This document shows, in pieces, positions 29,167 to 44,842 of a DNA stretch of 64,000 bases; position 1 is the stretch's first letter, and each line of letters opens with the position of its first letter. Source of the DNA: a virus; the UHGV virus genome UHGV-0286546. One strand, 5' to 3'. The position numbers and the translations under genes were made by a program. The notes under the pieces are model-generated. The model made no database searches and was not told the DNA's origin. It saw nothing but the letters and a program-made list of their open reading frames with translations.

Positions 29167-29176
29167 TTAAAATCGT

Positions 29177-29789: not shown

Positions 29790-29867
29790 GGTCGTTTCGT
29801 TCAGTTGGTCTAGGACATCGCCCTGTCACGGCGAAGATCACGGGTTCGAGCCCCGTAACGACCGCCA
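29790..29867 (+). tRNA. tRNA-Asp (anticodon GTC)
   Basis: Acceptor GGTCGTT/AACGACC, anticodon arm TCGCC-CTGTCAC-GGCGA, T-arm CACGGG-TTCGAGC-CCCGT, CCA. Confidence 0.8.
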
Positions 29868-29944
29868 TTTTTTATCGGAATTTGTATTAGAGTGTTTGGA
29901 AATATTTGTTAATTATGCTCTAATACAATAGAGGTTAAGTGAAT

Positions 29945-29998
29945 CCGGTCTAGCTTAACACTGCAAACCCCTCTAGACCGGACAGTTTTTATATATTT
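29945..29998 (+). terminator. strong intrinsic terminator ending tRNA cluster A (9-bp stem CCGGTCTAG/CTAGACCGG + T run)
   Basis: Inverted repeat with 20-nt loop followed by ACAGTTTTTATAT; second hairpin GTATTAGAG...CTCTAATAC just upstream (29884..29925). Confidence 0.65.
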
Positions 29999-30062
29999 GT
30001 AGAAATAGTTAGTACTTGTTCTAAAAAGTATGTGTTAGTATTTTTTAGCGAGGGTTAACTAT

Positions 30063-30548: not shown

Positions 30549-31123
30549 GGACCATAGACTTTTATACAGTTAAAGAAAGTGGTGCAAATATAAATAGAGT
30601 TATATATCATGTTGAAAATTCTGATATTGCTCTTATTAGTGCTTTTCGTTCTGATTCTTCGAAAAAACAAAATTTAGAAAATAATAAAAGATTAGCATTA
30701 GATATACATAATATTGGATTATCGTATATAAAAGTTACTGGTAATTATAAAGAAGAAAATAATTCAGAATTTACAACCGAAGATAGTTTTATAGTAATTC
30801 ATCGTCCAGAATCAAATAAAGCACAAGATGAATTTTTTGAAGAAATGCTTGGATTATGTAGAAAATATAATCAAGATGCAGTATTAATTAGTTTAAAAAA
30901 TCGAAAAGATGTCCCTATTGCTTCGTATGATAGTAATGGAAAAATTGTATATGGTCCATTTACTAAACTTACACTGAGTAATATAGAAGATTTTTATACT
31001 AGAATCCATAATCATAGGTTTAAATTTGAAAGCATTGTAGAATCAGAAGAAGGTATAAAACCGAGCGGATATTCAAATGCCATGCGATATTATGGAACAA
31101 AAGCTTTATTAAAATTAAAATAG
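30545..31123 (+). CDS. hypothetical protein (192 aa); leaderless paralog of 31592..32329
   Basis: Shares FFEEMLGLCRKYNQDAVLISL block with 31592..32329 (FKEEMLALGRKYNQETILLKL). Confidence 0.55.
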   Translation: MRTIDFYTVKESGANINRVIYHVENSDIALISAFRSDSSKKQNLENNKRLALDIHNIGLSYIKVTGNYKEENNSEFTTEDSFIVIHRPESNKAQDEFFEEMLGLCRKYNQDAVLISLKNRKDVPIASYDSNGKIVYGPFTKLTLSNIEDFYTRIHNHRFKFESIVESEEGIKPSGYSNAMRYYGTKALLKLK

Positions 31124-31224
31124 AAGTTTGAGACGTTGAGATTGCGGCTCTGGAGATAATCCTAAATTTATTATATACAATCTCTCAATTAAAACGTTAA
31201 CTTATAGAAAAGGAATAAATAGTC

Positions 31225-31587
31225 ATGTTGAATGGCAGCAATCAAGCACATAAAAGTAGTGCATACGAATCTTTGAGCAAATTAGAACAAGCTGAATTAG
31301 ACACTTTTATTAGAGGTCTTATTCAAGGGGCTTGTGCTTTTACAGACGAGTTTACAGTTTCAGATATTGTAGGTGGTAAGTTTACGCATTGGAAAAATAC
31401 TCCTTTGCATAAAATATATCTTTACCATAAGCATAGAAAAGATTGTGATAATCCGGTGGCCGAATCTGGTAAAGATATGGGAAGAATCTTTAAATATGTC
31501 ATGGCTAAAGATAAATTTAGAAATTATACTCTAGTCGGTACAGAACAAAGACAATTTCCAATTAACCGTTATAGAATAGAGTACTAA
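31225..31587 (+). CDS. hypothetical protein (120 aa)
   Basis: ORF with RBS AAAGGAA. Confidence 0.5.
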   Translation: MLNGSNQAHKSSAYESLSKLEQAELDTFIRGLIQGACAFTDEFTVSDIVGGKFTHWKNTPLHKIYLYHKHRKDCDNPVAESGKDMGRIFKYVMAKDKFRNYTLVGTEQRQFPINRYRIEY

Positions 31588-31591
31588 TAAA

Positions 31592-32329
31592 ATGTCAAAA
31601 TTTAAAGAAGTAGTAGAAAATGCTTTAAAAGAAAGAGGATTTTCTTTACAAAAACTAACAAATAATCTTGAGATAGATAGTCCGATATGTACGTGTTTTA
31701 TAACTGCATATTTAGAAACAAATGACAAGGAAACAAATATTGCTAATAACAACAAATTAGAATTAAATATTGTATCTCTCGGTTATGAATACGGTTATAA
31801 AAAAATCCTTGGTGGATATGTTTATTCAAATGGAACTTTTGCTAAAGAGCCTGGATTTTTAGTATCTTGTAAAAGAACTAATGTATTACCTGAAGATTTT
31901 AAAGAAGAAATGTTAGCTCTTGGCAGGAAATACAATCAAGAAACTATTTTACTAAAGTTACCAGGAGAAAAACCAGCTTACTATAATACCAGAGGTAATA
32001 AAATAGATGAAAAGGATATTGAATTCGCCTTTACAAAGCAGGTAGATCCAACAAAACCGAAAACACTTTATCCAAATGAAATTACAGCTTGGAGTAAAGG
32101 ATATACTCAATTACAAAAAGATGCAAACAAAGGTAAAAATCAAGCTATTGAATTGACCAATGAAAACTCTTCTGTTTTTGAATCGTTGATATTGACTGAT
32201 GAAGAAATCAATGAATTAAAAGAAGATACCAGAGAAAAATGTTTTTGTAGTGGCTCTGGGATATTAAGAATGGCTGCCTGTAGAGAACATTTGGGTTTAG
32301 AACCTTATCCTTGTCTCAAAAAGCGGTAA
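31592..32329 (+). CDS. member of MS(K/R)F(K/R)TIVEN-leader paralog family (245 aa)
   Basis: N-terminus MSKFKEVVENAL; body homologous to 30545..31123. Confidence 0.6.
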   Translation: MSKFKEVVENALKERGFSLQKLTNNLEIDSPICTCFITAYLETNDKETNIANNNKLELNIVSLGYEYGYKKILGGYVYSNGTFAKEPGFLVSCKRTNVLPEDFKEEMLALGRKYNQETILLKLPGEKPAYYNTRGNKIDEKDIEFAFTKQVDPTKPKTLYPNEITAWSKGYTQLQKDANKGKNQAIELTNENSSVFESLILTDEEINELKEDTREKCFCSGSGILRMAACREHLGLEPYPCLKKR

Positions 32330-32345
32330 TTTGAAAGTGTTTAAA

Positions 32346-32954
32346 ATGTCAAGCTTTAGAGAAATAGTAAATACTATTTTGAAGTCAGCTTTACTTGGTA
32401 AAAATCCTAATGTTGAATCATTAGCTATTATTACAGCTGAAGATTCCTTTGGTAAAAAAATTAACAGAAGAGACAATGCTACTCGATTGAAAGTTTTTAA
32501 GATACAATTGAAGCTAGGAGGTCATCCTTATGAAAACATTGTTGATAAATATGGAAATAAAGAGCATTCTTTTGTAATTTTTAATTTATCAAGATCTGCT
32601 GCTAAAAATTATGCAAAAGTATATGAGCAAGAATCGTTTATTTTTGGCATAAAGAATAAAGATGACATGTTATATGAATATTGGGAAACTGTAGATAATG
32701 GTAAAACTTATAATTTATCTAAAACTACAGATTTTATAAGAAATGAGCCAGAATTAGAAGATTATTTTTCTAGATTACATGATTATAAATTTAATATAGG
32801 CTTTGATTTTAATGAATCTATCGACGAAGAAACTGTAAGAAAATTAGAATCTATTACGACTCCAGAAGATAAGAAATGGATTAAAGAATATATTAATGAA
32901 GAACGTGTAGGTATGGCTTCTTATTTACATTATAAAAAGTTGTATAAAAATTAA
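32346..32954 (+). CDS. member of MSxFxxIVxN-leader paralog family (start at second ATG: MSSFREIVNTIL)
   Basis: Internal Met gives family-consensus N-terminus. Confidence 0.5.
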   Translation: MSSFREIVNTILKSALLGKNPNVESLAIITAEDSFGKKINRRDNATRLKVFKIQLKLGGHPYENIVDKYGNKEHSFVIFNLSRSAAKNYAKVYEQESFIFGIKNKDDMLYEYWETVDNGKTYNLSKTTDFIRNEPELEDYFSRLHDYKFNIGFDFNESIDEETVRKLESITTPEDKKWIKEYINEERVGMASYLHYKKLYKN

Positions 32955-32977
32955 TGTCTTAAAAGGAGAGAATCAGT

Positions 32978-33163
32978 ATGACACAAGAAGAAAAACAGAA
33001 ACGCTTAGAAGAACAGCAGTTTAAGAAAAAATGGGCCAAACGTTTGAAACTTAGCCCTATGCCAAATAAGATATCTGCAAATGTTGGTAGAGCACCTCGT
33101 TGTAATAGTAATACCGCTAAAAAAGAAGTATCTTTGGCAGTAGCTTCGAAGAAAAAGAAATAA
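32978..33163 (+). CDS. small basic (K-rich) protein (61 aa)
   Basis: Strong RBS AAGGAGAG 8 nt upstream; preferred over overlapping antisense ORF 32959..33204. Confidence 0.5.
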   Translation: MTQEEKQKRLEEQQFKKKWAKRLKLSPMPNKISANVGRAPRCNSNTAKKEVSLAVASKKKK

Positions 33164-33322
33164 TTTAATCCAATTGACTCCCTAAGCCTCTTAACAATGC
33201 GCAACTAGTCTCTGAATTAACAGTAGATGTATATATAAGCTGCAGTAATTATATATATAGGAGTCGTTTTCTGTTTTACAATACAATTAAAATACTGCAT
33301 ATAATGTATATATTAAATAAAT

Positions 33323-33595
33323 TTGAAAGATAATTTTATGAATTTACTTAATCAATGTCAAATCCGTTTATACGGTGAAAATGAGTGGAGTGAAATTAAA
33401 GAATTTTATCCGGTAGCTAAAAGTGTTTTGATTGAAACCTGGTTAGAAGATCATCCAGAATTTTATGAAAGATCGGTGTTAAGTGATGGATATAAAGAAT
33501 TGATTATTGAAACAAGACATAATGATTCTGAAGATTCTACAATACAAATTCATAAAGTAGATATTTCATATAAGTTTGATATAAAAGATTTATAA
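33323..33595 (+). CDS. hypothetical protein (90 aa)
   Basis: ORF ending 8 nt before tRNA-like element. Confidence 0.5.
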   Translation: MKDNFMNLLNQCQIRLYGENEWSEIKEFYPVAKSVLIETWLEDHPEFYERSVLSDGYKELIIETRHNDSEDSTIQIHKVDISYKFDIKDL

Positions 33596-33603
33596 ATTTT
33601 TAT

Positions 33604-33723
33604 GAGAGGGTAGCTCAGTCTGGTAGAGCAACGTAAAAAAGTATTTAGTATTTAAGTACGTTCAGCAACATATATTTTTGGTTGGTAACCCGTGTGTCGT
33701 AGGTTCAAATCCTACCCCTCTCA
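33604..33723 (+). tRNA. tRNA-like element with ~46-nt insertion replacing a canonical anticodon arm (intron-containing, disrupted or repurposed tRNA)
   Basis: Perfect acceptor GAGAGGG/CCCTCTC, canonical D-arm GCTCAGTCTGGTAGAGC and T-arm GTAGG-TTCAAAT-CCTAC, but 68 nt (33631..33698) between them with no foldable 17-nt anticodon arm; no encoded CCA. Confidence 0.45.
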
Positions 33724-34355
33724 ACAAGTTTTGGTTTGTTAGTTTAGATAGGCTATAATTAAAGTAAGTAAGTTTGGAAGTTACGACACAGACCAAATAA
33801 CCTATCGTTTCCAAATTATCTTTATCGTTGTCGTGAAGGATAAAGAGTGAAAAACTAACGTTAAAGTGACAAAAAGTATACTTAATTATCCAAAGTATTG
33901 CCAATATCACTTGAATTTATGGGTGTCGTGTTTTCGAAAGAGCATGAAGGTCAGGGTCAATCCCAAAAGAGTCACGAACGTGGATTTCATATTTTACCTC
34001 CACCTGCCCATAATTTTTTATGCTCCGTCGTAGTCTTGGTGACCACTAGTTGAATGTCTATAGCTCCAGTCAATTAGTATGGGAATACTGTTCGAATCAG
34101 TTACGGGGTACCAATTTTTATGAGTAGTTTATTAGTTCTTCTCGCCTTGGAAAATTGAACTAGTGAATAGTCATCTTGTAATGGTAAACATTCTTGACTG
34201 AAACTAAAGAAAAGTTTATATGTTTATTAGAGTAATATGGTAAGCCGCGGCTGAGACTTATAAGGGTAAGTAGATATATAGATGTAATGAAAGTTTTACC
34301 ACAGTATAAAGATTAGTAATATGAAGAAAGAATTAAATGACGCGAGGATAAAATA

Positions 34356-34541
34356 ATGAAAGCAAAGAAAATGACAATATCGATTAAAATACCTAAACCT
34401 AGAGATTTTAATCATTATACCTTACAATTAAAAGGATTGATGAGAACGAAAGTAATTAAAAATAAAAAGAAAGAAATCAAGAAATTCAATTGGAAAAAAG
34501 ATAGTACAGATTATTCAAACATTATATTAGCTAGTGCTTAA
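34356..34541 (+). CDS. small K-rich hypothetical protein (61 aa), doubtful
   Basis: ORF in AT-rich spacer; low-complexity lysine-rich. Confidence 0.3.
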   Translation: MKAKKMTISIKIPKPRDFNHYTLQLKGLMRTKVIKNKKKEIKKFNWKKDSTDYSNIILASA

Positions 34542-34562
34542 ATAATTTGTATTGTCTTCATT

Positions 34563-34650
34563 GGAGGAATGGCAGAGTGGCTTAATGCAGCGGTTTACTA
34601 AACCGTCGTACCGAAAGGTGCCGTGGGTTCAAATCCTACTTCCTCCGCCA
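34563..34650 (+). tRNA. class II tRNA (88 nt, Ser-like architecture) with non-canonical anticodon loop TTACTAA (ACT by standard register)
   Basis: Acceptor GGAGGAA/TTCCTCC, anticodon arm (G)CGGT-TTACTAA-ACCG(T), variable-arm hairpin GTACC-GAAA-GGTGC, T-arm GTGGG-TTCAAAT-CCTAC, CCA encoded. Confidence 0.5.
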
Positions 34651-34657
34651 ATTTATT

Positions 34658-34751
34658 AGGTCTGTCGTTCAATGGTTAGGACACTAGGCTTATACCCTAG
34701 CGAGCGTCTGATTAACGCGAAATCCCAGTTCGAGTCTGGGCGGACCTACCA
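34658..34751 (+). tRNA. 94-nt tRNA-like gene: anticodon arm CTAGG-CTTATAC-CCTAG (TAT) followed by a 23-nt extra arm that itself looks like an anticodon stem-loop (GCGT-CTGATTA-ACGC)
   Basis: Acceptor AGGTCTG/CGGACCT, D-arm GTTC-AATGGTTA-GGAC, T-arm CCCAG-TTCGAGT-CTGGG, CCA encoded. Confidence 0.45.
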
Positions 34752-34776
34752 GTTTTAAATAAGAAAGGAAGTATAA

Positions 34777-34971
34777 ATGAGCACACGTCAAGAATATAAT
34801 AAAAAAATTTTAGCACATATTTCTGAAAAAATAGACCAGTGTTCAGATATGCGTTTTGTACAAATTCTGTGGGCATTGAGAATTGATGATGGACAAGATA
34901 ATTTCTACGAAGAATCGAAAGAAACGTTAGAAAAAGTAGAAAACAATCTAAAGAAAATTAATAACGAATAA
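34777..34971 (+). CDS. small hypothetical protein (64 aa)
   Basis: ORF with RBS AAGGAAG. Confidence 0.5.
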   Translation: MSTRQEYNKKILAHISEKIDQCSDMRFVQILWALRIDDGQDNFYEESKETLEKVENNLKKINNE

Positions 34972-35046
34972 TATTATTTCCGGTTTTACAATATTTTTAA
35001 CAAGACATATATTTGTTTATAGATTAACAGAAAAAAGGAAGTGGAT

Positions 35047-36531
35047 ATGTCTGATAATAAAACAATGACTGAAAAAGGTGCTATTACTAATCAATCTACA
35101 TTAGACAAAGTTGTAGATTGGTTTTATCATGGAGCCGCATTACGTAGAGAAAAAAACAAAGACCGTATTATAGCTTTGTTTGATGATGCTTTTAAACAGG
35201 ATAAAACCAAAGCATTGCGTATTTTATTTTATATTCGTGATATTCGTGGTGGTCAAGGTGAAAGACGCATTTTTAGAATTTGCTTAAATCATTTGGCAAA
35301 AATAGAATCTGCTTGGTTAAAAGACAATTTGGCATTAATTGCTGAATACGGCAGATATGATGATTATTTGTGCTTGCTTGATACAGAAATTAAAAGTGCT
35401 GTAATTGATTTCGTTAAAGCACAATTAGATAAAGATATTGCTGCAATAGATAGCAATACACCTATTTCATTGCTTGCCAAATGGATGCCTTCCGTTACAA
35501 CCAAGAATAAAGAAAAAAGAAGATATTTAAATGCTCTTTTGAATTCTGGTAAATTTGGCACAGTAAAAAATTATAGACAAACGTTATCTAAACTTCGTGA
35601 TAAATTAAATATTGTTGAAAAGAATCTTTGCAATAAAGCCTTTGCTGAAATTGAATATTCTAAAGTTTCTTCTAATGCAATGTCTAAGTATTCAAAAACT
35701 AGAATTTCATCTGGATTAGCTGGTACTTTTTGGCGCAATGACTTAGATAGATTTAAAATGTATTTAGACGCTGTTAAAAACGGTAAAACAATCGACGGCA
35801 AAGAAGTAAAAATAAATGCAAAAACCTTATATCCATATGATGTTATTACAAAATATATGAGTGGTTATAGTATAAGTCATCAAGAAGATCCTGCAGCGGA
35901 AGCTCAATGGAATGCTTTACCTGATTATGTACCAGAGATTAACGGCATTGTAATTTATGATACTTCGGGTTCAATGTATGGATTACCTATGGCTGTATCT
36001 TTGTCGTTGGCTATTTATATTGCTGAAAGAAATAAATCAGAAGTTTGGCGTAATTATGTTATTCCATTCTCATCTAATGCGACTTGGAAAAAAGTAAAGG
36101 GTAACAATTTAGTAGAAAAAATTGAATCTATTTATACTGGAGATTGTTCAAATACTAATTTACAAGCAGCCTTTGATCTTATTTTAGGTAAAGCTATATA
36201 TGCGCAAGTACCTAAAGAAGATATGCCAAAACAGCTGATTATTATTAGTGATATGGAATTTGATTCGGTTTCTTCTAATAACCAAACTAATTATGAAGCT
36301 ATAAAAAGCAAATATAAGAAAGCTGGTTATGACTTACCACAATTAATCTGGTGGAACGTTGAATCAAGAAGCAATCAAACACCGATTACAGTAAATGATA
36401 AAAATTGTTTATTGCTTTCTGGCTGTTCACCGGTAGTTATGCAAGTAGCTTTGGGTGGTTCATACGATTTTATGGAAGCAATCGATAAAATTATTAACCA
36501 AGAACGTTATAGTTGCATCAATTATAATTAG
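35047..36531 (+). CDS. von Willebrand factor A (vWA) domain protein with DUF2828/TROVE-like N-terminal region
   Basis: MIDAS motif IVIYDTSGSMYG; N-terminal ALRILFYIRDIRGGQGERRIF block reminiscent of DUF2828-type proteins (uncertain); ATG at 35047 preferred over GTG at 35041. Confidence 0.6.
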   Translation: MSDNKTMTEKGAITNQSTLDKVVDWFYHGAALRREKNKDRIIALFDDAFKQDKTKALRILFYIRDIRGGQGERRIFRICLNHLAKIESAWLKDNLALIAEYGRYDDYLCLLDTEIKSAVIDFVKAQLDKDIAAIDSNTPISLLAKWMPSVTTKNKEKRRYLNALLNSGKFGTVKNYRQTLSKLRDKLNIVEKNLCNKAFAEIEYSKVSSNAMSKYSKTRISSGLAGTFWRNDLDRFKMYLDAVKNGKTIDGKEVKINAKTLYPYDVITKYMSGYSISHQEDPAAEAQWNALPDYVPEINGIVIYDTSGSMYGLPMAVSLSLAIYIAERNKSEVWRNYVIPFSSNATWKKVKGNNLVEKIESIYTGDCSNTNLQAAFDLILGKAIYAQVPKEDMPKQLIIISDMEFDSVSSNNQTNYEAIKSKYKKAGYDLPQLIWWNVESRSNQTPITVNDKNCLLLSGCSPVVMQVALGGSYDFMEAIDKIINQERYSCINYN

Positions 36532-36650
36532 TTCTTAATAACTATTAAAGACTGTGAAAAACGTACAGCAATCTATAAAATATTTTATATTGAAGACTTG
36601 CTGTGTTTTAACAGCATGATAAGGTATTAATTTCGGTTAATACCTGTTTA

Positions 36651-36715
36651 TAAGGAAGGGCCGAAACAAAAGTTTTTCGTTAAAAGACAGTCTTTACGGT
36701 CCTTCCTTTTTTTTA
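36651..36715 (+). terminator. long hairpin + T8 terminator after vWA gene
   Basis: AAGGAAGGGCCG...CGGTCCTTCCTTTTTTTT. Confidence 0.6.
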
Positions 36716-36728
36716 TCAAAGGATAGGA

Positions 36729-36977
36729 ATGTTTACAATGTTAGATTTGCATAAAAAGTCAATATATAATAAAGAAGAATTGGATAAAGCAGATTTATGT
36801 GGATGTTTCTATTGCTGCGAAGTATTTGATCCGAGTGAAATAAAAGAATACACTGATAACGGAAACACTGCACTTTGCCCATATTGTAAAGTTGATTCTG
36901 TAATACCTCTTAATAAAAACGATGAAGAGTCTAAAGAAATTTTACAAAAAATGTATGGATATTTCTTTAAAGATTAA
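36729..36977 (+). CDS. zinc-ribbon protein (82 aa)
   Basis: CGCFYCC...CPYC four-Cys pattern. Confidence 0.5.
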   Translation: MFTMLDLHKKSIYNKEELDKADLCGCFYCCEVFDPSEIKEYTDNGNTALCPYCKVDSVIPLNKNDEESKEILQKMYGYFFKD

Positions 36978-37057
36978 AATTTTATTTATTTTTTGTTTTA
37001 CATTTATATTCTATATTATATAAATATATTGTTTTTAAGTCAATATAAAAATTTTAT

Positions 37058-37130
37058 TCGGGGGTCGTCTAGTGGCAGGACATGAGATTTTGGCTCTCAT
37101 AACGTTGGTTCGAATCCAGCCCCCCGAACC
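37058..37130 (+). tRNA. tRNA-Gln (anticodon TTG)
   Basis: Acceptor TCGGGGG/CCCCCGA, anticodon arm TGAGA-TTTTGGC-TCTCA, T-loop TTCGAAT, CCA encoded. Confidence 0.75.
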
Positions 37131-37152
37131 AAAAATTGAAAGGAAAAGAAAA

Positions 37153-37380
37153 ATGAAGTTATATGATAGTGGAATTATTTTAGGTAGTGTAATTGCATTT
37201 ATGATATATGGAATAGGGTATATTATAAATGGAAAAATTAATGAACAGCCTAAAGTAGACTATCAAGAACAAAGAATTCTAAACGAAGGTTATGTAAAAA
37301 CTAATTATACAGAAGATCAAATTTTCTACAGTGATTACCAAGAATGTGTAGAATATAAAGATCATTTTTATTGTTATTAA
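37153..37380 (+). CDS. small membrane protein (start corrected to ATG after tRNA-Gln; track ORF 37072 begins inside the tRNA)
   Basis: RBS AAAGGAAAAG then ATG; hydrophobic N-terminus IILGSVIAFMIYGIGYII. Confidence 0.5.
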   Translation: MKLYDSGIILGSVIAFMIYGIGYIINGKINEQPKVDYQEQRILNEGYVKTNYTEDQIFYSDYQECVEYKDHFYCY

Positions 37381-37394
37381 TTTAGGAAGTAAAG

Positions 37395-37643
37395 ATGAAA
37401 AAAGTATTGTTAGGCATTTTTATTGTTTTATTGTTAACTGCTTGTGCTCAAGAAAGAGTACCGTACGTTAAAACAGATTGTAGAAATTGTAATTCTCAAT
37501 ATACCGTAAGAAAACCTGTAGAAATTGTATACGAAGAGATTACTTATACTACTGTTTATGAACCAAGAACATATGCTAAGACAAAAAGAGTAACGGTTCC
37601 ATATAAAAATTGTGAAAAAACTTATAAAAAATACTGTCGTTAA
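37395..37643 (+). CDS. small lipoprotein (82 aa)
   Basis: Signal peptide with lipobox LLTAC. Confidence 0.5.
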   Translation: MKKVLLGIFIVLLLTACAQERVPYVKTDCRNCNSQYTVRKPVEIVYEEITYTTVYEPRTYAKTKRVTVPYKNCEKTYKKYCR

Positions 37644-37650
37644 TAAAAAA

Positions 37651-37680
37651 TTGCTTTACAAATAAAAATTTTATGATAAT
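37651..37680 (+). promoter_or_regulatory. sigma70-like promoter TTGCTT-N17-TGATAAT (module copy 1)
   Basis: Near-consensus -35/-10 spacing; homologous copy at 43106..43136; related TTGTTTTAC motifs at 36999 and 39397. Confidence 0.55.
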
Positions 37681-37718
37681 ATAAATATATAAATTAAAAA
37701 AGAAGGGTTCTATAAACT

Positions 37719-37778
37719 ATGATGAAAATGATGTTTAAATATATTAGATTTTATAAACAGCTCAATCGAGGTGTATAA
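37719..37778 (+). CDS. 19-codon leader peptide MMKMMFKYIRFYKQLNRGV (candidate attenuator leader for downstream tRNA cluster)
   Basis: RBS AGAAGGG; first 13 codons are only ATG, AAA, TTT, TAT, ATT, AGA = codons of the downstream phage tRNAs Met/Lys/Phe/Tyr/Ile/Arg(TCT). Confidence 0.5.
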   Translation: MMKMMFKYIRFYKQLNRGV

Positions 37779-37811
37779 TTTTCTATTACGTTTTTATCAG
37801 ATAGAATTTAA

Positions 37812-37850
37812 AAGCCTCGAGAATAAGAATCGAGGCTTTATTATTATAAG
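37812..37850 (+). terminator. intrinsic terminator (AAGCCTCGA-N9-TCGAGGCTT + T-rich) between leader ORF and tRNA-Tyr
   Basis: 9-bp perfect stem; leader 3' end contains identical TCGAGG able to compete for the 5' arm. Confidence 0.6.
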
Positions 37851-37855
37851 TTTTT

Positions 37856-37940
37856 GGTTGGGTCGCATAGCGGCAATTGCTGGAGACTGTAAATCTCTTC
37901 TCTTCGGAGTTCGTAGGTTCGAGTCCTACCCCAACCACCA
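37856..37940 (+). tRNA. tRNA-Tyr (anticodon GTA), class II
   Basis: Acceptor GGTTGGG/CCCAACC, anticodon arm GGAGA-CTGTAAA-TCTCT, long variable arm, T-arm GTAGG-TTCGAGT-CCTAC, CCA. Confidence 0.8.
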
Positions 37941-37945
37941 TTTAT

Positions 37946-38023
37946 AGAGAGGTAACTCAGTTGGTCTAGAGTATTCGCCTGATATGCGAAGAGTCGTGAG
38001 TTCGAGTCTCACCCTCTCTACCA
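37946..38023 (+). tRNA. tRNA-Ile (anticodon GAT)
   Basis: Acceptor AGAGAGG/CCTCTCT, anticodon arm TTCGC-CTGATAT-GCGAA, T-arm GTGAG-TTCGAGT-CTCAC, CCA. Confidence 0.8.
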
Positions 38024-38042
38024 AATTATTTAGGGAGCATTT

Positions 38043-38600
38043 TTGTTGAGTTATAACAGATTAAAAAATTTTAGAAAATTACGAAAACTAGCTATATTAC
38101 AAGGATTTGGCGGAAAATGTCAATGTTGTGGTTATAACAAATGCGTTCAAGCTTTAGAATTTCATCATTTAAATTGTAATGATAAAGAATTTTCTATTAG
38201 TACCATTATGAATAAAAACTGGAACGAAATAAAAAATGAATTAAAAAAATGTATTTGTGTGTGTGCCAATTGTCATAGAGAAATACACAATAATTTATTA
38301 GAAATTGATGTTAATAAACAATATTTTGACGAAAACGCCGTACAAGATTATGAATGTGCTATAAATAAGGTAACAAAATATAGCAAATGTCCAATTTGCG
38401 GAGCATTAAAACCAGAATATAACAAATTTTGTTCTCGAAAATGTGCCGCGAAATCAAGAGATAGAGTAAATTGGGAACAATACGAAAGTTTAGTTTATAT
38501 TATTGATAATAAAATTGAATCTATTAATAGTATTGCTTCTAAATTAAATATTTCTTGGCAAGCTGTAAAGAAAAGATATAAAAAATTAAAATCGCAATAA
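38043..38600 (+). CDS. HNH homing endonuclease (185 aa, TTG start with AGGGAG RBS) inserted inside tRNA operon
   Basis: CQCCGYNKCVQALEFHHLNCN ... CANCHREIHNN = HNH/zinc-binding signature. Confidence 0.7.
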   Translation: MLSYNRLKNFRKLRKLAILQGFGGKCQCCGYNKCVQALEFHHLNCNDKEFSISTIMNKNWNEIKNELKKCICVCANCHREIHNNLLEIDVNKQYFDENAVQDYECAINKVTKYSKCPICGALKPEYNKFCSRKCAAKSRDRVNWEQYESLVYIIDNKIESINSIASKLNISWQAVKKRYKKLKSQ

Positions 38601-38617
38601 AGATTTGAATTATTTAT

Positions 38618-38693
38618 GGTCATGTAGCTCAGTTAGTAGAGCACCAGACTGAAAATCTGGGTGTCGTTGGGGCGGAACCAACCGTGACCACCA
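38618..38693 (+). tRNA. tRNA-Phe (anticodon GAA) with atypical T-loop GGCGGAA instead of TTCGAAT
   Basis: Acceptor GGTCATG/CGTGACC, anticodon arm CCAGA-CTGAAAA-TCTGG, T-stem GTTGG/CCAAC, CCA encoded. Confidence 0.65.
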
Positions 38694-38699
38694 TTTATT

Positions 38700-38775
38700 G
38701 GAAGTATAGCTCAGCCGGTAGAGCAACGAGCTTTTAACTCGTGGGTCATGGGTTCGAATCCCTTTGCTTCCACCA
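38700..38775 (+). tRNA. tRNA-Lys (anticodon TTT)
   Basis: Acceptor GGAAGTA/TGCTTCC, anticodon arm ACGAG-CTTTTAA-CTCGT, T-loop TTCGAAT, CCA. Confidence 0.8.
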
Positions 38776-38783
38776 ATTTTTAT

Positions 38784-38860
38784 GGCGATGTAGTTCAGCC
38801 GGTTAGAACGTATCCCTCATAAGGATAAGGTCACTTGTTCGAGTCAAGTCATCGCTACCA
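38784..38860 (+). tRNA. tRNA-Met or Ile2 (anticodon CAT), second CAT tRNA
   Basis: Acceptor GGCGATG/CATCGCT, anticodon arm TATCC-CTCATAA-GGATA, T-loop TTCGAGT, CCA. Confidence 0.75.
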
Positions 38861-38913
38861 TCTTTTTAAATTTTAAGTTCTAAACATAAAATGATTATTA
38901 CGGAGAAATTTTT

Positions 38914-39390
38914 ATGCCTAGAATTATAAAACATACAGATAAAGTTTTAGTAGAACGCTGTGAAAGTTATTGGTTAAGTCTACGACATGTAAATAGTTAT
39001 TTACCAGGGATAGAAATTTTTAAAAATCCGTCAAAGTCTGATCTTTTAAAAATGTTAAGACAAACATCTACAATACGAGGATTTGCTGATCACGAAGATG
39101 TAATTGTATGGAATGGAGAAGAAGAAATTCATGGTACAATCGAAAAGGCAATACGACAAAAGTATGGTGATGATACTTTTTCAGACGGTAAGCATAGGAT
39201 AGCAAGATTTCAAGTATTTAGAGATAAAAATAACCTTTTAGGATTTGAAGACAATGAGGGTCCCGATACAGATGAGGTAACGAATGAGTTAAAACAAACA
39301 CTTTTGGGTAACCCAAATTTCACTAAACTCTTTTCGAAAGAAGAAATACTAAATGCACAATCTCATCACATTATAGACGATGAAGAATAA
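38914..39390 (+). CDS. hypothetical protein (158 aa); leaderless paralog of 42557..43102
   Basis: Shares blocks LKERCES, TIRG(F/L)AD(H/N)EDVI(V/I)W(N/D)G, NPNFT(K/R)LFS(K/E)EEILNA(Q/D)SH with 42557..43102. Confidence 0.6.
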   Translation: MPRIIKHTDKVLVERCESYWLSLRHVNSYLPGIEIFKNPSKSDLLKMLRQTSTIRGFADHEDVIVWNGEEEIHGTIEKAIRQKYGDDTFSDGKHRIARFQVFRDKNNLLGFEDNEGPDTDEVTNELKQTLLGNPNFTKLFSKEEILNAQSHHIIDDEE

Positions 39391-39452
39391 ATAAAATTGT
39401 TTTACTTTTATTAAAAATAATATATATTTATTTTAAATAGCTTTGCATTAGA

Positions 39453-39529
39453 GGATTCTTAGCTCAATTGGATAGAGCAATAGCCTTCTAAGCTATGGGT
39501 TGCAAGTTCGAATCTTGCAGAATCCGCCA
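39453..39529 (+). tRNA. tRNA-Arg (anticodon TCT)
   Basis: Acceptor GGATTCT/AGAATCC, anticodon arm ATAGC-CTTCTAA-GCTAT, T-arm TTGCAAG-TTCGAAT-CTTGCAG, CCA. Confidence 0.8.
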
Positions 39530-39577
39530 TTTTTTTATTATTTTCTGTTTTACATTTTTTAATTATGGTGTATTTTA

Positions 39578-39855
39578 TTAATATCTGTTATGGCGGAAGT
39601 ATAGACGCTAGATGGAGTGTGGAGAGAGGAAGTGAATCCGGAATAGCTTACCTCGCAGATGAAAAGAATACGGCCGAAAGCGGTGAATAATCGCAATCGG
39701 AGAAACCGTAGAACGGAGGCTCAGACGGGATGCAAACTAACCAATTAAGTCACAATTCGCGAAGTGATGTCATCGAGCCCAAAACAAAGACCACACGTTC
39801 TAAAGGGTTGGTATTTTCTTAATAGTATATCATGGCTTTAGATAACAGATATTAA
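39578..39855 (+). ncRNA. candidate structured non-coding RNA / IR-bounded element: GC-enriched 250-nt ORF-free core flanked by perfect 14-bp inverted repeats TTAATATCTGTTAT / ATAACAGATATTAA
   Basis: No ORF >=60 aa on either strand; GC much higher than flanks; sits in tRNA island directly 3' of tRNA-Arg (T4 encodes stable RNAs C/D in its tRNA region, a precedent). Confidence 0.4.
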
Positions 39856-39887
39856 CAAAGTATATAGTGAAAGGAATGAATAAATAG

Positions 39888-40295
39888 ATGTTGGAAAAAA
39901 TAAAAGAAAAAATTAAAGATTGGTGGTTTTCTAGAGATAGTATTTTTAATTTTTATTTCTCAATATCTTCATCTGGTATTTTTATAAATTTTACTATATT
40001 AGATTACGGTATAGATTTAGATATCACTATTCCGTGTATTCTTCCTAGCTTCTATATTAAAACCTTTTATGAAAAAGAACAAGAAATCTTTACAAATAAA
40101 TTTTGGGGTGAACAGTTTACATTTGTTTCTGATTTGCGTACAGAATTTGGTACAGGTTGGTTTGTTAATCAAGATCATGCTGGTTTTAGTGCTCAAGCGT
40201 CAATTTTAGGTTTTAATTATAGTTATGAATTGAGAGATACAAGGCATTGGGATTACTTTAAAAATTGCTGGAAGAGCTGTTCAGAAGATAAATAA
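39888..40295 (+). CDS. hypothetical protein (135 aa), F/W/Y-rich
   Basis: ORF. Confidence 0.5.
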   Translation: MLEKIKEKIKDWWFSRDSIFNFYFSISSSGIFINFTILDYGIDLDITIPCILPSFYIKTFYEKEQEIFTNKFWGEQFTFVSDLRTEFGTGWFVNQDHAGFSAQASILGFNYSYELRDTRHWDYFKNCWKSCSEDK

Positions 40296-40350
40296 ATAAG
40301 ACATTCTAAAGTTCTAAGTATATATTTGGTATATTTAGGACTTTTTATTT

Positions 40351-41106
40351 ATGAGTAGATTCAGAACAATTGTAGAAAATATCATAAAAACTTTTACAGA
40401 AGACGCGTTCTCAGACAGAGATAGATATAAAGAGGCAATTGATGTATATCTTAATGTATTAGATAAAATGGAACCGTCTCTAAATACAGATAAAATTATT
40501 ACAGATAGCGCAGAATGTGTCAGTTTACAAGTAGATACACCTCATGGTCCTCTAATTGTTAGTGTTTCTCTAGATAAAGATGTACATAATGCCGGTGTAT
40601 ATTATCCAGAATACAACGCTATTGAACTTAACATACACGGTATAATGGATTTGAGTGATGAAACTATAAACATGACAGATCCGATTACCGGTGAAGAAAA
40701 TGTTACAGGTATAAATGCTAAATACTTATATAAAATTTTATCTTCTCGTGCCGTTCAAGATACATTTATTCACGAATATACCCATTTTATAGATGATAAA
40801 ACAAAGTACTCCATGAAAAAGCAAGCAGATACATATAAAAATATAGATTATTTCAATAAACCTTACGAAAGAAATGCGTTTTATATTGCTTGGTTAAATA
40901 AAATCGTTTCATATACCTATAAAAAATATGGTAAAATAATGAAAGAGTTGACACCAGATGAACGATTAAATTTTTTAAGAAATGCTTGGAAAGAAGACGA
41001 AGAATTTGTAGAATATTATAATAAACTTGAACCTGCTGCAAAGAAAAGATTTATGTCAAGATTATATAATTATTTTAGTACTGATTTCTGGTCGGATGCT
41101 GCATAA
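40351..41106 (+). CDS. leader-family member (MSRFRTIVENIIK) with HExxH zinc-metallopeptidase motif (251 aa)
   Basis: DTFIHEYTHFIDD = HEXXH; conserved N-terminal decapeptide. Confidence 0.55.
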   Translation: MSRFRTIVENIIKTFTEDAFSDRDRYKEAIDVYLNVLDKMEPSLNTDKIITDSAECVSLQVDTPHGPLIVSVSLDKDVHNAGVYYPEYNAIELNIHGIMDLSDETINMTDPITGEENVTGINAKYLYKILSSRAVQDTFIHEYTHFIDDKTKYSMKKQADTYKNIDYFNKPYERNAFYIAWLNKIVSYTYKKYGKIMKELTPDERLNFLRNAWKEDEEFVEYYNKLEPAAKKRFMSRLYNYFSTDFWSDAA

Positions 41107-41123
41107 CAAAAGGTAGATTTAAA

Positions 41124-41708
41124 ATGAGTAAAATAAGAACAATTATTGAAAATATCCTTTATGAAGGTGATAAAAAAATATTTGATAAAGAATCTGGATA
41201 CAATAGCTCTAAAGATGAGTTATATATTTATGATTTACTTAAAAAGAAATGGCCAGATGTTAAAATGAGCTATACCAGAGATGATTTTATTAATCCAGAA
41301 ACTCATCGTCATTTTCAATTAGATTTTTACGTACCTTCTGAAAATATGGGAATACAGGTAAATAAACATTGGAAACACGGTAGAAGAGTATATGATCCAT
41401 CTGATCCAAATTGTCAAAAAGATGTTCGTTGGTTAAAAAATAAAGGTGGAGATTTTTATAACAAAGTTTTGCATACCTGGACCGAATTAGATCCTATTAA
41501 ACGAGAAGTTGCAAAGCAAATAGGTATGAAATACGTAGAAATCTTTAATTTAGACGAATTTAATACTTGGTACAATAATCCAGAATTAACATACGAAGAA
41601 TATAAACAGGCTCCAGATTCTTTACAATACGACAGTGATGAATATTTTGCTGCAAAAGCTAATAATCGTGATATTTATGGTAATGATTCCGATCCGTTAG
41701 GTGCATAA
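41124..41708 (+). CDS. leader-family member (MSKIRTIIENILYE), possible nuclease-like fold (194 aa)
   Basis: Conserved N-terminus; FQLDFYVPSENMGIQVNKHWKH loosely PD-(D/E)xK-like. Confidence 0.5.
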   Translation: MSKIRTIIENILYEGDKKIFDKESGYNSSKDELYIYDLLKKKWPDVKMSYTRDDFINPETHRHFQLDFYVPSENMGIQVNKHWKHGRRVYDPSDPNCQKDVRWLKNKGGDFYNKVLHTWTELDPIKREVAKQIGMKYVEIFNLDEFNTWYNNPELTYEEYKQAPDSLQYDSDEYFAAKANNRDIYGNDSDPLGA

Positions 41709-41774
41709 TTACGGTTTTACTTTTATTTTAATATAAATTATTATATATAAAATTTAAAATAGATAGGTATAAGA

Positions 41775-42530
41775 ATGAGTAAGTTTAAAACCATCGTAGA
41801 AAATGCATTATATGAAGTTGGAGCATTGCCTTTTCCAAAAAATATTCAAGTATATGCTAAAAAAGAAAAAGTAAATTTATTTGAAATTAAATATTTACGA
41901 AAAGATGGTAAATTGGATGAACCAGGTGGAATTTGTTATGCTAAAACTGGAATTTGGAAAGATATCCGTGAAAATGAAAATGCTTTTATACGCACGCAAT
42001 TAGATGAAAAATTTAGACCAGATCAAGGCAATTTTAGTAAATATCGTGGTGGTATGATTGTATTTGCTCTGAGTGTCAATACTGTCATTGATAAATTGAA
42101 TTATAATCAATTAGTTGCAGAAATTAAAAAGATTTGGTATACCTTAATAAACAATACCTTTAAAAATAAAATGATTAAAGGTGTAGTTAATTCTATGAAA
42201 AATACTTATGCTAACATTGAAGATGCAGAGATCGGAGGTATTACAATAGGTAATAACTTTAAAGGCATGTATTTTGATGGTAATAAAGTATATAATGATA
42301 AATCAACGAGTTTAGAAATAAATGACATTTCTAGTGAGATGTTGTTATTACTAGCTATTGAAATTTGTAAAGCATTTCGTCAAGATAGCGTTTTAATCAA
42401 AGATTTCAATAAAAATAAATTCTTTTTGTGTGATTCTGAAGAAGTAGAAGGCGAAATTCCAGAAGAAAAAATAAAAAACGCTTCTAAAGACTTAGCAAAC
42501 TTAAAGAATGTAAATACAAAAACAAAATAA
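41775..42530 (+). CDS. leader-family member (MSKFKTIVENALYE), 251 aa hypothetical
   Basis: Conserved N-terminus. Confidence 0.55.
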   Translation: MSKFKTIVENALYEVGALPFPKNIQVYAKKEKVNLFEIKYLRKDGKLDEPGGICYAKTGIWKDIRENENAFIRTQLDEKFRPDQGNFSKYRGGMIVFALSVNTVIDKLNYNQLVAEIKKIWYTLINNTFKNKMIKGVVNSMKNTYANIEDAEIGGITIGNNFKGMYFDGNKVYNDKSTSLEINDISSEMLLLLAIEICKAFRQDSVLIKDFNKNKFFLCDSEEVEGEIPEEKIKNASKDLANLKNVNTKTK

Positions 42531-42556
42531 TGTATGATTTAGCAGAAAGTATAATT

Positions 42557-43102
42557 ATGAGTAGATTTAGAACAATTGTTGAAAATGCTATTGCCAAAGT
42601 AAATAAAAAACTTTTAAAAGAACGTTGTGAATCGCTTTTTATAGCACCAATGAGTCTACATAATGATGAGCGAGAAGTAGTAGAAGTACTTTATAATCCT
42701 TCGAAAGCAGAATTCAATAGAGCATTTAGAGAATGGGGTACTATACGAGGACTTGCTGACAATGAAGATGTAATTATTTGGGATGGATATAAAGCTGTTC
42801 ATGATTCAGTAAAAGAACAATTAGAAAAACAGTATGGTGCAACCTTTCCAACTAATTACGGGACATTATGCAGATTTGAAACAACACGCGAATATCCATT
42901 AATGCTCGAAGATGATACAAAACAGTATAGTCATGGTAAAGAATTAGATCCAGTAAAGCAAACCTTATTTAAAAATCCTAACTTTACACGATTATTTTCA
43001 GAAGAGGAAATACTAAATGCTGATTCTCATAATTTTGCTAATGGAGAATTCGGTGAGTTTCAAAATGATCCAGAAATATTAAAAAAGTTTGGATATGATT
43101 AA
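42557..43102 (+). CDS. leader-family member (start at MSRFRTIVENAIAK; track ORF starts 27 nt earlier), paralog of 38914..39390
   Basis: Family N-terminus at internal ATG; body homologous to 38914..39390. Confidence 0.55.
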   Translation: MSRFRTIVENAIAKVNKKLLKERCESLFIAPMSLHNDEREVVEVLYNPSKAEFNRAFREWGTIRGLADNEDVIIWDGYKAVHDSVKEQLEKQYGATFPTNYGTLCRFETTREYPLMLEDDTKQYSHGKELDPVKQTLFKNPNFTRLFSEEEILNADSHNFANGEFGEFQNDPEILKKFGYD

Positions 43103-43105
43103 AAA

Positions 43106-43136
43106 TTGCTTTACAGATATAAAATTTTATGATATT
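43106..43136 (+). promoter_or_regulatory. sigma70-like promoter TTGCTT-N18-TGATATT (module copy 2)
   Basis: ~90-bp region homologous to 37647..37735. Confidence 0.5.
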
Positions 43137-43173
43137 GTATAAATATAAAATAAAAAAGAGAGTTCTATAAATT

Positions 43174-43239
43174 ATGATTAATACGAATATTTTACATTGT
43201 TGGTGTCATCATTTACTTCACAGAGGTGTTGATGCTTAG
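43174..43239 (+). CDS. 21-codon leader peptide MINTNILHCWCHHLLHRGVDA (candidate attenuator leader for Cys-His-Trp tRNA cluster)
   Basis: RBS AAAAGAGAG; CAT TGT TGG TGT CAT CAT ... CAC = 7 of 21 codons are His/Cys/Trp, exactly the three tRNAs immediately downstream. Confidence 0.5.
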   Translation: MINTNILHCWCHHLLHRGVDA

Positions 43240-43272
43240 TTATACGTGTTAATTCATAAAATTATTAGTTTC

Positions 43273-43308
43273 AAGCCTCTAGGATAATTACTTTCTAGAG
43301 GTTTTTTT
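43273..43308 (+). terminator. intrinsic terminator (AAGCCTCTAG-loop-CTAGAGGTTT + T7) between leader ORF and tRNA-Cys
   Basis: 10-bp stem + TTTTTTT; leader 3' end AGAGGTG can pair with the CCTCT 5' arm. Confidence 0.65.
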
Positions 43309-43313
43309 ATTAT

Positions 43314-43387
43314 GGACTGTTGGTAGAGTGGTTATACGTTAGTCTGCAAAACTAATTACACAAGTTCGAATCTTGTACAGTCCTCCA
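43314..43387 (+). tRNA. tRNA-Cys (anticodon GCA), U73 discriminator
   Basis: Acceptor GGACTGT/ACAGTCC, anticodon arm TTAGT-CTGCAAA-ACTAA, T-arm CAAG-TTCGAAT-CTTG, TCCA end. Confidence 0.75.
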
Positions 43388-43430
43388 ATTTTACGCATAG
43401 AAGTATATATCAATAAAATGGTCTATTCTT

Positions 43431-43506
43431 GTGTGCGTAGCTTAATTGGTAAAGCGTCGGTTTGTGGTACCGAAGGATACGAGTTCGAATCTCGCTGCTC
43501 ACCCCA
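43431..43506 (+). tRNA. tRNA-His (anticodon GTG), C73 discriminator, no encoded G-1
   Basis: Anticodon arm TCGGT-TTGTGGT-ACCGA, D-arm GCTT-AATTGGTA-AAGC, T-arm ACGAG-TTCGAAT-CTCGC, one acceptor mismatch. Confidence 0.7.
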
Positions 43507-43512
43507 CTTTAT

Positions 43513-43586
43513 AGGGACTTAGTTTAATGGTAAAACACTAGTCTCCAAAACTAGATATAGGAGTTCGATTCTCTTAGTCCTTGCCA
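43513..43586 (+). tRNA. tRNA-Trp (anticodon CCA)
   Basis: Acceptor AGGGACT/AGTCCTT, anticodon arm CTAGT-CTCCAAA-ACTAG, T-arm AGGAG-TTCGATT-CTCTT, GCCA end. Confidence 0.75.
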
Positions 43587-43589: not shown

Positions 43590-43940
43590 CTAACGATATT
43601 TAAAGTATAATGTATCTGCTTCATATCTTATTCTGTTATAACGTATTATATTTTTTACATCTTCTATATCAGAGTCTGGAACAGTAAACCATTCACCACG
43701 CATTTTATAATTTTTACGACGTAATTCTCTATGTATTAATCTTTCGATTTTAAGTAAATGATTTCTTTCACATTCAAATTCTTCAGTAAACAATAACACC
43801 AAATCATTCGGATGTCCGGTTTGTAATTCTTTTATTCTTTTATTAGGATCTTTAGATATACCTACTTTTATATGACCGTTATTATCTCCAATCATATACA
43901 TATAATCTAAAGGTTGTATTTCATCATTTATTATTTGCAT
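43590..43940 (-). CDS. T5orf172/GIY-YIG-like (MUG113-type) domain protein, putative homing endonuclease
   Basis: YMYMIGDNNGHIKVGISKDPNKRIKELQTGHPNDLVLL ... GEWF matches T5orf172 core. Confidence 0.65.
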   Translation of the reverse strand: MQIINDEIQPLDYMYMIGDNNGHIKVGISKDPNKRIKELQTGHPNDLVLLFTEEFECERNHLLKIERLIHRELRRKNYKMRGEWFTVPDSDIEDVKNIIRYNRIRYEADTLYFKYR

Positions 43941-44050: not shown

Positions 44051-44842
44051 ATGGTTAAAAACTATTACGAAATATTAGAAGTACATAAATTTGCTTCAGA
44101 TACTGAAATTAAGCGTGCTTTTTACAAGTTAGCTAAAAAGTATCATCCTGACATTAACCCTAAAACAGCAAACTTATTTAAAGAAATTAATGAAGCTTAT
44201 CATGTTTTAATTGATCCTAAACTAAGACGTGAATATAATAACAGCTTAAATACAGAAGTTCCGTTCACTTTAAACGAAGATATTTTTAAATCCTCTGAAA
44301 ACGATTCATTAGTAGATATTCTTAATAATGTAACCAAACAAACAGAAGACCTGAATAAAGAATTAGAAGAACTTATAAACTCTTTTGATTACTTTGAAGA
44401 TGGACAATACTACTATAATCCAGAAAAAGAAAGTATCTTTAGAATTATAGATGAATTTAAAACATTTAGATTTGAAAACGCTGTTGCTGCCATATGGAAT
44501 AGAAATGCAATTAGTATCTTCGGCGCGGCATTTGTTTTCCTGCTGAGTTTTATTTGTATTTTGTTTACTAAACCATTTAAACTCTATAAACATCTTACTT
44601 ATAAAAAACGTAACTTTGCTTGGTTAAATCATATTTCCAGATTAACTAAAGAAAATAAATTGTTTTTTACATTGTGCTGGACTATTATCTTAAATATTTT
44701 TAGCGTAAGTAGGCTAATTTATAATATTTTATATTCTACTGTATGGATTTTCAGTAAGATTTTAAAATACTTCTTGATTCCAGCCGCTATTATATTTGCT
44801 GCCACATTTAGAGTTGCTTTCTATAATCCAACAAGAAGATAG
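44051..44842 (+). CDS. J-domain (DnaJ-like) protein with C-terminal transmembrane segments (263 aa)
   Basis: [33 protein letters not shown] = J-domain with HPD; 3 hydrophobic helices in C-terminal half. Confidence 0.75.

Follow-up and report, generated by a model that had tools for sequence, protein, structure and literature searches.

A leader-tagged zincin-like protein as candidate injected head cargo of an AT-rich, T4-related giant phage

What does a phage gain from a small protein that combines an HExxH zinc-metallopeptidase motif with a short N-terminal leader also found on its neighbours? This question is raised by a gene in the UHGV virus genome UHGV-0286546, of which one stretch of 64,000 nucleotides (nt), referred to as the window, was analysed. 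The gene product has 251 amino acids and carries a conserved metal site on a predicted domain with zincin topology, preceded by a leader that behaves as a module. We propose that it is a gluzincin-like enzyme that may be loaded into the phage head by virtue of its leader and injected into the host. The features on which this proposal rests are the following:

40351..41106, stop codon included, plus strand: gene for the leader-tagged zincin-like protein (open reading frame, homologues, AlphaFold2 models).
40351..40380, plus strand: leader MSRFRTIVEN, proposed capsid-targeting propeptide with proposed cleavage after E9 (I-V-E/N, the slash marking the cut), shared by six open reading frames.
40405..40482, plus strand: N-terminal helix of the zincin core, residues 19-44, with near-invariant D22 (AlphaFold2 secondary structure, conservation).
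40522..40716, plus strand: beta-sheet subdomain, strands between residues 58 and 122 (DSSP on the AlphaFold2 model).
40771..40794, plus strand: HEYTHFID, active-site helix motif HExxHxxD with H141, E142, H145 and D148 (conservation, helix 133-151).
40849..40881, plus strand: YFNKPYERNAF, conserved Y-x-N-x-P-x-E-x-N-A motif with E173 as the proposed third metal ligand (conservation, family signature).

The open reading frame (ORF) starts with ATG, has no long competitor and is real. HEYTH occupies residues 141-145 (nt 40771-40785) and PYERNAF residues 171-177 (nt 40861-40881), the codon of E173 being nt 40867-40869. An earlier interpretation of the stretch that was made from the letters alone, here called the sequence-only reading, had considered HEYTH together with the glutamate of PYERNAF to be compatible with a gluzincin-type active site. 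HExxH is short and frequent by chance in proteins, and it might simply have arisen by accident in an unrelated protein. In the window, a single HExxH is present among 98 ORFs of at least 70 amino acids (17,328 residues), with 0.28 occurrences expected from amino-acid composition, and for one protein of 251 amino acids the same calculation yields an expectation of 0.004.

Comparison with relatives settles this point. A word-indexed search returned seven close homologues of 34-89% identity, all of which feature HE[YF]TH and E-x-N-A, and 224 proteins at E<=1e-3, 15 of them at E<=1e-30, emerged when 1.84 billion cluster representatives were searched exhaustively with a profile. Most of the aligned family members are only 17-26% identical, and H141, E142, H145 and E173 are the sole invariant columns in both a 70- and a 121-sequence alignment. 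D22, D148, Y167, N175, A176 and R237 are kept in at least 90% of the aligned sequences; the family signature reads FIHE[FY]xH[FY]xD ... Y[FY]N[SD]PxExNA[FY][FY], and a conserved NKKRxxxRLY motif is located on the C-terminal helical bundle. We judge the active site to be well supported because four residues are invariant in 121 highly divergent homologues, and conservation and model together make a metal-dependent hydrolase site at H141/E142/H145/E173 very probable. The gluzincin compatibility noted in the sequence-only reading has thus been substantiated: HExxH is kept in all homologues, E173-R-N-A176 fits the expected motif and the four residues do not vary. A chance HExxH is effectively refuted by the invariance of HExxH plus E173 in 121 homologues and by its location on the expected helix of the zincin-like model.

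The family is newly defined, comprises about 220 cluster representatives and is undescribed in current Pfam, PHROGs and NCBIfam. Scans of these three libraries assigned neither the protein nor 70 relatives to any family at threshold, and scattered sub-threshold matches to M76, M90, M91 and SprT were all centred on the HExxH helix. The zincin-like family may already have an entry of very recent date in Pfam, since homologue P0005 carries the precomputed accession PF28253, an accession that we could not identify and that is absent from the Pfam copy used. A second word-indexed search with the 121-sequence profile yielded nothing new, and an IMG/VR locus search with the 8-sequence alignment yielded one locus. 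A collection of 50,697 isolated phage genomes contains no match to the protein itself by tblastn or at the DNA level; distant family members match only Salicola phage SCTP-2 and the huge-phage contig LR756508 in this collection.

For the predicted fold, AlphaFold2 (AF2) models were built from 8-sequence and 121-sequence alignments, and secondary structure was assigned by DSSP on the model. The mean predicted local distance difference test score (pLDDT) was 83 with eight sequences and 92.2 with 121 sequences (predicted template modelling score 0.88 for the latter), and both models contain the same secondary elements. An N-terminal helix (residues 3-15, leader) has a lower pLDDT than the protein body. 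HExxHxxD resides on helix 133-151, which is followed by a loop and by helix 171-193 opening with E173-R-N-A176, and a C-terminal helical bundle comes after this glutamate helix. The zincin core has been described as an N-terminal helix, a sheet, the HExxH helix and a second helix providing the Glu ligand (Iyer et al., PMC5512222), and the order of elements in the model fits this description. E173-R-N-A176 satisfies the gluzincin glutamate-helix motif (E,H)xx(A,F,T,S,G) (PMC7213743). With metal ligands H201, H205 and E229, ArdC has a His-to-Glu spacing of 24, close to the spacing of 28 in the window protein (PMC7213743). The sequence-only reading would have fallen had no metalloprotease fold been predicted; the high-confidence model instead has zincin/gluzincin topology.

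Remote homology gives a divided answer. Structure searches found no solved metalloprotease that matches the AF2 model significantly, and no significant match to a characterised zincin was obtained; on the other side stand weak structural matches to many zincins, including EcxA, oligopeptidase A (OpdA), an IrrE/PprI orthologue, CapP, Spartan, Dcp, neurolysin, the minigluzincins projannalysin, abylysin and selecase, collagenase H, PepO, BepA, deuterolysin, the effector VgrG2b and anthrax lethal factor (LF). Among viral structures, an unnamed entry of BFVD, A0A248SK74, matched best (E 1.4e-5). We conclude from the models that this is a zincin/gluzincin-like domain, but one that forms a distant, separate family. 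Anthrax LF also supplied the only profile match in the PDB, its catalytic core, at E 0.08 with an 8-sequence profile (FIHEFGHAVDD versus FIHEYTHFVDD). Membership in the LF-like group (M34) was rejected, as this match did not exceed E 0.08 and was gone with the 121-sequence profile.

A zincin-like site does not have to belong to a peptidase. It is conceivable that the HExxH/E site serves other metal chemistry, as in oxygenases of the alpha-ketoglutarate-dependent HExxH type (alphaKG-HExxH), which do exist, or in another hydrolase, or that it only binds a target. ArdC is the relevant precedent, as its zincin site is conserved yet dispensable for its known biological role, antirestriction (PMC7213743). 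In the family described here, however, not only all three ligands but also the base E142 are strictly invariant over 121 divergent sequences, the Glu that serves as third ligand is borne by an E-x-x-A helix, a feature of gluzincin peptidases, and the weak structural neighbours are mostly peptidases. A role other than that of a peptidase is improbable on these grounds.

Some distant relatives of the zincin-like domain are parts of giant proteins. Polyvalent proteins have been predicted to be delivered together with phage DNA, and zincin metallopeptidases (MPTases) are their commonest domain (Iyer et al. 2017, PMC5512222). P0043 (2207 amino acids) contains two family copies together with ART-PolyVal, an ADP-ribosyltransferase (ART) domain, and DUF5662; P0023, P0032 and P0051 (1095-1439 amino acids) contain two or three copies and a sub-threshold PARP-like match (E 3e-4 to 5e-3, 17-21 bits versus a gathering score of 26.7). 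As judged from their domain content, these giant proteins exhibit a polyvalent, injected-type architecture. One phage-type zincin clade is characterized by an Asp three residues past HExxH and a His that ends core strand 2 (PMC5512222); in our family, D148 occupies the Asp position, and inspection of the alignment revealed no conserved His in the sheet region. Placement in the N4 virion RNA polymerase clade was dropped, hhalign against residues 2130-2448 covering only the 17-residue HExxH helix at 16% probability. No Pfam zincin or PolyVal model matched at E<=1e-3 in 70 members and none at E<=0.01 in eight large members; by this test, the family falls outside MPTase-PolyVal.

How would a solitary zincin reach its place of action? 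The sequence-only reading had assigned the protein to a family sharing a targeting-like leader, and this assignment has gained substance. The leader MS(R/K)(F/I)(R/K)x(I/V)(I/V)EN opens six ORFs in the window, starting at 31592, 32346, 40351, 41124, 41775 and 42557, and the six proteins are mutually unrelated by blastp once the first 12 residues are removed. Ser2 is encoded by TCA in two of the genes and by AGT in four, and other codons vary synonymously; selection therefore acts on the peptide and not on the DNA. The non-coding DNA upstream of the leader genes is not conserved. Copies without leader occur as well: ORF 38914 is a leaderless paralogue of the gene at 42557 (blastp 38% identity, E 1e-31), and the homologue of the 41775 gene in a relative (L009, 11411-12088) lacks the leader and begins about 35 residues in. 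Because such leaderless copies of leader-family proteins exist, the leader appears as a detachable element that is gained and lost as a module.

In phage T4, the capsid-targeting sequence (CTS) MKTYQEFIAE makes up residues 1-10; targeting depends on residues 4 and 7 and processing on residues 8 and 10, with cleavage by gp21 after the Glu (PMC8442874; PMC9026906). The T4 internal proteins Ip1-3 are injected to counteract restriction; they have only this leader in common, and their genes occupy a plastic hotspot (PMC3012670; PMC12373910). F4, I7 and I7-V8-E9 of the window leader parallel T4 CTS positions, one residue nearer to the Glu. The likeness extends into the family, as [LIVFMA]xE is present within the first 22 residues in 110 of 121 members, many of which open with MKTFKKFLTE, MKTFKQYVKE or MKLxxLFE(D/S). 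Several independent circumstantial lines thus support a targeting leader, and from sequence and context we consider it likely that the leader is a capsid-targeting sequence. As a separate observation, the T4 prohead core protein gp68 (L008) contains NTIVENML, which includes the core TIVEN of the window leader; this may be a coincidence or a shared gp21-type site.

The leader region is also the place where the gene was recombined:

40354..40406, plus strand: recombination/deletion junction in the leader region (blastn of the window versus L001).

L001 is a 244-kb close relative (Logan contig ERR13991539_467) that carries two tandem zincin paralogues (9267-10759), one P0007-like and one P0001-like, in place of the single gene in the window. 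In blastn, window and L001 match at 98% up to nt 40406 and at 95% from nt 40354 on, and 684 bp in between are absent from the window. The first 19 residues of the 40351 product are identical to P0007 and its body is 88-89% identical to P0001. Because of this match pattern, gene 40351 can be described as the first 19 codons of the upstream paralogue of L001 joined to the body of the downstream one. The chimera looks like the product of a deletion by recombination between leaders or, conversely, L001 has experienced a duplication; in either case the sequences identify the leader as a recombination site.

This finding can also be turned against a targeting function. The zincin could be an unpackaged cytoplasmic protein and the shared N-terminus a translation or stability tag or the footprint of cassette recombination. 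Such an interpretation accommodates the demonstrated recombination at the leader, the mostly acidic nature of the mature leader proteins and the leaderless homologues of two leader genes (38914 and the 41775 homologue in L009). It does not explain why the peptide is kept through synonymous and Ser-codon-family changes, why it agrees with the T4 CTS in length, at residues 4 and 7 and in I-x-E, why it co-occurs with genes for a T4-type portal and an S77-like protease in a relative, and why the same domain is found in injected-type polyvalent proteins. We therefore regard a purely cytoplasmic zincin as distinctly unlikely and retain packaging by means of the leader as the preferred explanation.

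The type of phage agrees with a T4-like route. The window originates from an AT-rich (31% GC) myovirus, a new T4-related giant phage, and 98% of its sheath protein can be aligned with T4-type gp18, the identity being about 25%. The zincin orthologue of a relative (L005/L009, 27-28% GC) is 44% identical and opens with MSKFRIIVE(S/N). This orthologue and a homologue of the 41124 gene, which opens with MSKFRKLVEN, are flanked by a Portal_T4 gene (E 2e-14) on one side and by a Peptidase_S77 (gp21)-like gene on the other. The N-terminus QILIE/S of the relative's gp21-like protein recalls LLIE of T4 gp21. The L009 gene (13130-14743) encodes at least 537 amino acids compared with 212 for T4 gp21, with the protease domain at residues 55-169, and may be a protease-scaffold fusion. 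Another family member adjoins a sheath gene and a T4 gp19-like tube gene.

The position next to head genes raises the possibility that the zincin is packaged but works inside the prohead or virion, with other proteins of the head interior as targets of trimming or activation during maturation or at ejection. Autoproteolytic and processing roles have been proposed for polyvalent zincins, and P1 DdrB is processed before packaging (Iyer et al., PMC5512222); an extra zincin for maturation cleavages has been suggested for group 1 jumbo phages (Iyer et al. 2021). The two or three copies interspersed in multidomain ART proteins and the location of the L009 gene in the head module, from portal to protease, point in the same direction. 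The window gene, however, is remote from any head gene, its surroundings being an accessory region of tRNA and homing-endonuclease genes, copy number varies among close relatives (two in L001, one in the window) as is typical of arms-race cargo, and the relative already possesses a gp21-like serine protease for maturation. In-head processing is thus unlikely, albeit the least so of the alternatives considered, and we return to a function in the infected host.

The mechanism that we propose would run as follows. The leader of roughly 9-10 residues (MSRFRTIVE/N) would direct the pro-protein into the prohead core, where a gp21-like prohead protease would remove it at I-V-E/N, an I-x-E site. The remaining zincin/gluzincin-like domain of roughly 240 residues would bind its metal through H141, H145 and E173 and use E142 as general base. 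Packed in the head beside the DNA, the mature enzyme would be ejected into the host upon infection and act before phage gene expression, our best guess being the cleavage of a host protein such as a defence component. It would be part of a local set of leader-tagged cargo that is shuffled by leader recombination. For the whole chain, from loading by the leader through cleavage and injection to hydrolysis of a host protein by a gluzincin-like enzyme, we see an even chance; for the substrate being a host protein, the prospects are even at best and possibly somewhat lower. As to the injected protease effector of the sequence-only reading, active site, fold and modular leader hold, and packaging, leader cleavage and injection of the 40351 product are what we infer. 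The targets mentioned there, host defence or surface proteins, are speculation, and a surface target is without support.

Several observations weigh against the proposed chain. Besides the ArdC precedent and the lack of a significant structural match to any solved metalloprotease, there is no recognisable portal, prohead protease or capsid gene in the 64-kb window. When T4 head and tail proteins were compared with the window, gp18 was the sole match, and a prohead protease is not demonstrable there because gp18 alone matched. The gp21-type protease is seen only in the relative and reached E 2.2e-5 and 24.5 bits, compared with a gathering score of 27. In distant members, conservation within the family extends to an N-terminal segment, M+LxELFE, which could belong to the fold there. 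The mature window protein is acidic with an isoelectric point of about 5.1, in contrast to the basic internal proteins of T4. Finally, a scan for the T4 late promoter (TATAAATA) and scans for sigma-70 promoters and terminators in the window remained at chance level and did not inform on the timing of expression.

The other members of the leader family and a leaderless paralogue are located in the same part of the window:

31592..32329, plus strand: leader-family gene (MSKFKEVVEN), S-adenosylmethionine-lyase-like (Pfam PF23780, 29.3 bits versus a cut-off of 28).
32346..32954, plus strand: leader-family gene (MSSFREIVNT), DUF3293, related to S-adenosylmethionine lyases (Pfam PF11697, 27.1 bits versus a cut-off of 25).
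38914..39390, plus strand: leaderless paralogue of the 42557 gene (blastp).
41124..41708, plus strand: leader-family gene (MSKIRTIIEN), 194 amino acids, resembling the DUF7487/homing-endonuclease-associated ORF 17665-18519 on the minus strand (sequence comparison).
41775..42530, plus strand: leader-family gene (MSKFKTIVEN), weak S-adenosylmethionine-lyase-like C-terminal part (library scans).
42557..43102, plus strand: leader-family gene (MSRFRTIVEN) (ORF listing, leader search).

Degradation of S-adenosylmethionine (SAM) is a known anti-restriction strategy, employed by phage T3. The SAM-lyase-like ORFs of the window also weakly match DUF3293, and a leaderless SAM-lyase gene is present at 30545-31123 (Pfam, 62.8 bits). 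Three members of this set of SAM-lyase-like/DUF3293 paralogues carry the leader and may be packaged in the head for immediate anti-restriction. The 41124 product, which is about 32% identical over 110 residues to that of the ORF at 17665-18519 (minus strand), may be an injected nuclease-like protein; its homologue stays beside the zincin gene in L005/L009, in reversed order. The mechanically called ORF of the last leader gene opens at ATG 42530 (MYDLAESIIMSRFRTIVEN...), overlapping the stop of the preceding gene. If the leader has to be N-terminal, translation more probably starts at an internal Met at 42557, the first residue of the leader. Taken together, the leader cargo fits the notion of an "entry-stage counter-defence kit". 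It is tempting to go further and to assume that this lineage pre-loads enzymes (metalloprotease, SAM-lyase-like, nuclease-like) into its head and that the zincin is the first injected phage protease that cleaves a host immune protein in the first seconds of infection, before transcription; in this full form, the idea is tentative and rather unlikely.

The region has further features. ARAGORN called 20 tRNA genes on the plus strand (28663-43586), interleaved with the leader genes; two of these calls, Ser(ACT) at 34563-34650 and Ile(TAT) at 34658-34751, are of unusual length. Between tRNA clusters, there are a gene for an HNH endonuclease (38043-38600) and one of the T5orf172 type (43590-43940, minus strand). 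Within the tRNA region, an ORF of 496 amino acids (35041-36531) matches PHROG 850 'RNA-binding protein' (E 1.6e-115), and its orthologue in L001 carries DUF2828/DUF7788. On its downstream side, the leader cluster is closely followed by a gene for a DnaJ-domain protein (44051-44842; PF00226, E 1.6e-21), and upstream of the SAM-lyase paralogues there is an RNase H gene (30063-30548).

If the zincin is catalytic and packaged, the T4-type delivery route would be extended to proteolytic effectors, and the leader-tagged SAM-lyase-like and nuclease-like neighbours would extend it to other enzyme classes. The leader would offer an easily recognised sequence mark by which injected cargo can be catalogued in uncultured T4-related giant phages, and it could serve as a packaging tag in such phages. 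At the same time, the family provides a link between stand-alone phage proteins and the zincin modules found in giant polyvalent proteins with ART domains.

Four comparisons place the protein among known systems. Two named relatives, gp462 of Salicola phage SCTP-2 (ASV44477.1) and the LR756508 protein, belong to the same family, with HELTH ... YYNTPAEYNAYY and the N-terminus MKLEQLFED; they differ by an identity of about 20-30% and by an annotation that reads only "hypothetical protein". The C-terminal domain of ArdC, IrrE (M78) and Spartan-SprT have no significant sequence or profile match to the window protein, which is devoid of the single-stranded-DNA-binding ArdC-N domain and of a helix-turn-helix domain and features a distinct C-terminal helical bundle with NKKRxxxRLY. 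With the MPTase of polyvalent proteins, it shares the HExxH helix and Glu helix on a helix/beta-sheet/two-helix core, D148 three residues past HExxH in at least 90% of the sequences, the occurrence of one to three copies in giant ART proteins and a weak affinity to anthrax LF; the difference lies in the solo domain fused to a T4-type leader.

The T4 system is the fourth. All three T4 internal proteins for which targets have been identified act as stoichiometric inhibitors of GmrSD restriction enzymes (PMC12373910), and Alt, an ADP-ribosyltransferase, is noted as a packaged enzyme (PMC9026906). The window leader is another sequence than the T4 CTS and one residue shorter before the Glu, the putative cargo has no sequence homology to any T4 internal protein, and it is a 28-kDa acidic predicted enzyme rather than a small basic inhibitor. 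As with Ip1, Ip2, Ip3 and Alt, however, an N-terminal leader of roughly 10 residues is all that unrelated proteins have in common, and it resembles the CTS, by sequence only, in an aromatic residue at position 4, a hydrophobic residue at position 7 and an (I/L)-x-E processing motif. The genes are likewise clustered in a plastic accessory locus and shuffled by leader recombination, and a gp18-like sheath in the window phage and a gp20-like portal and gp21-like protease in relatives complete the parallel. The novelty lies in the combination of T4-type CTS cargo with a zincin of the polyvalent-protein type, in a family that has no name as yet.

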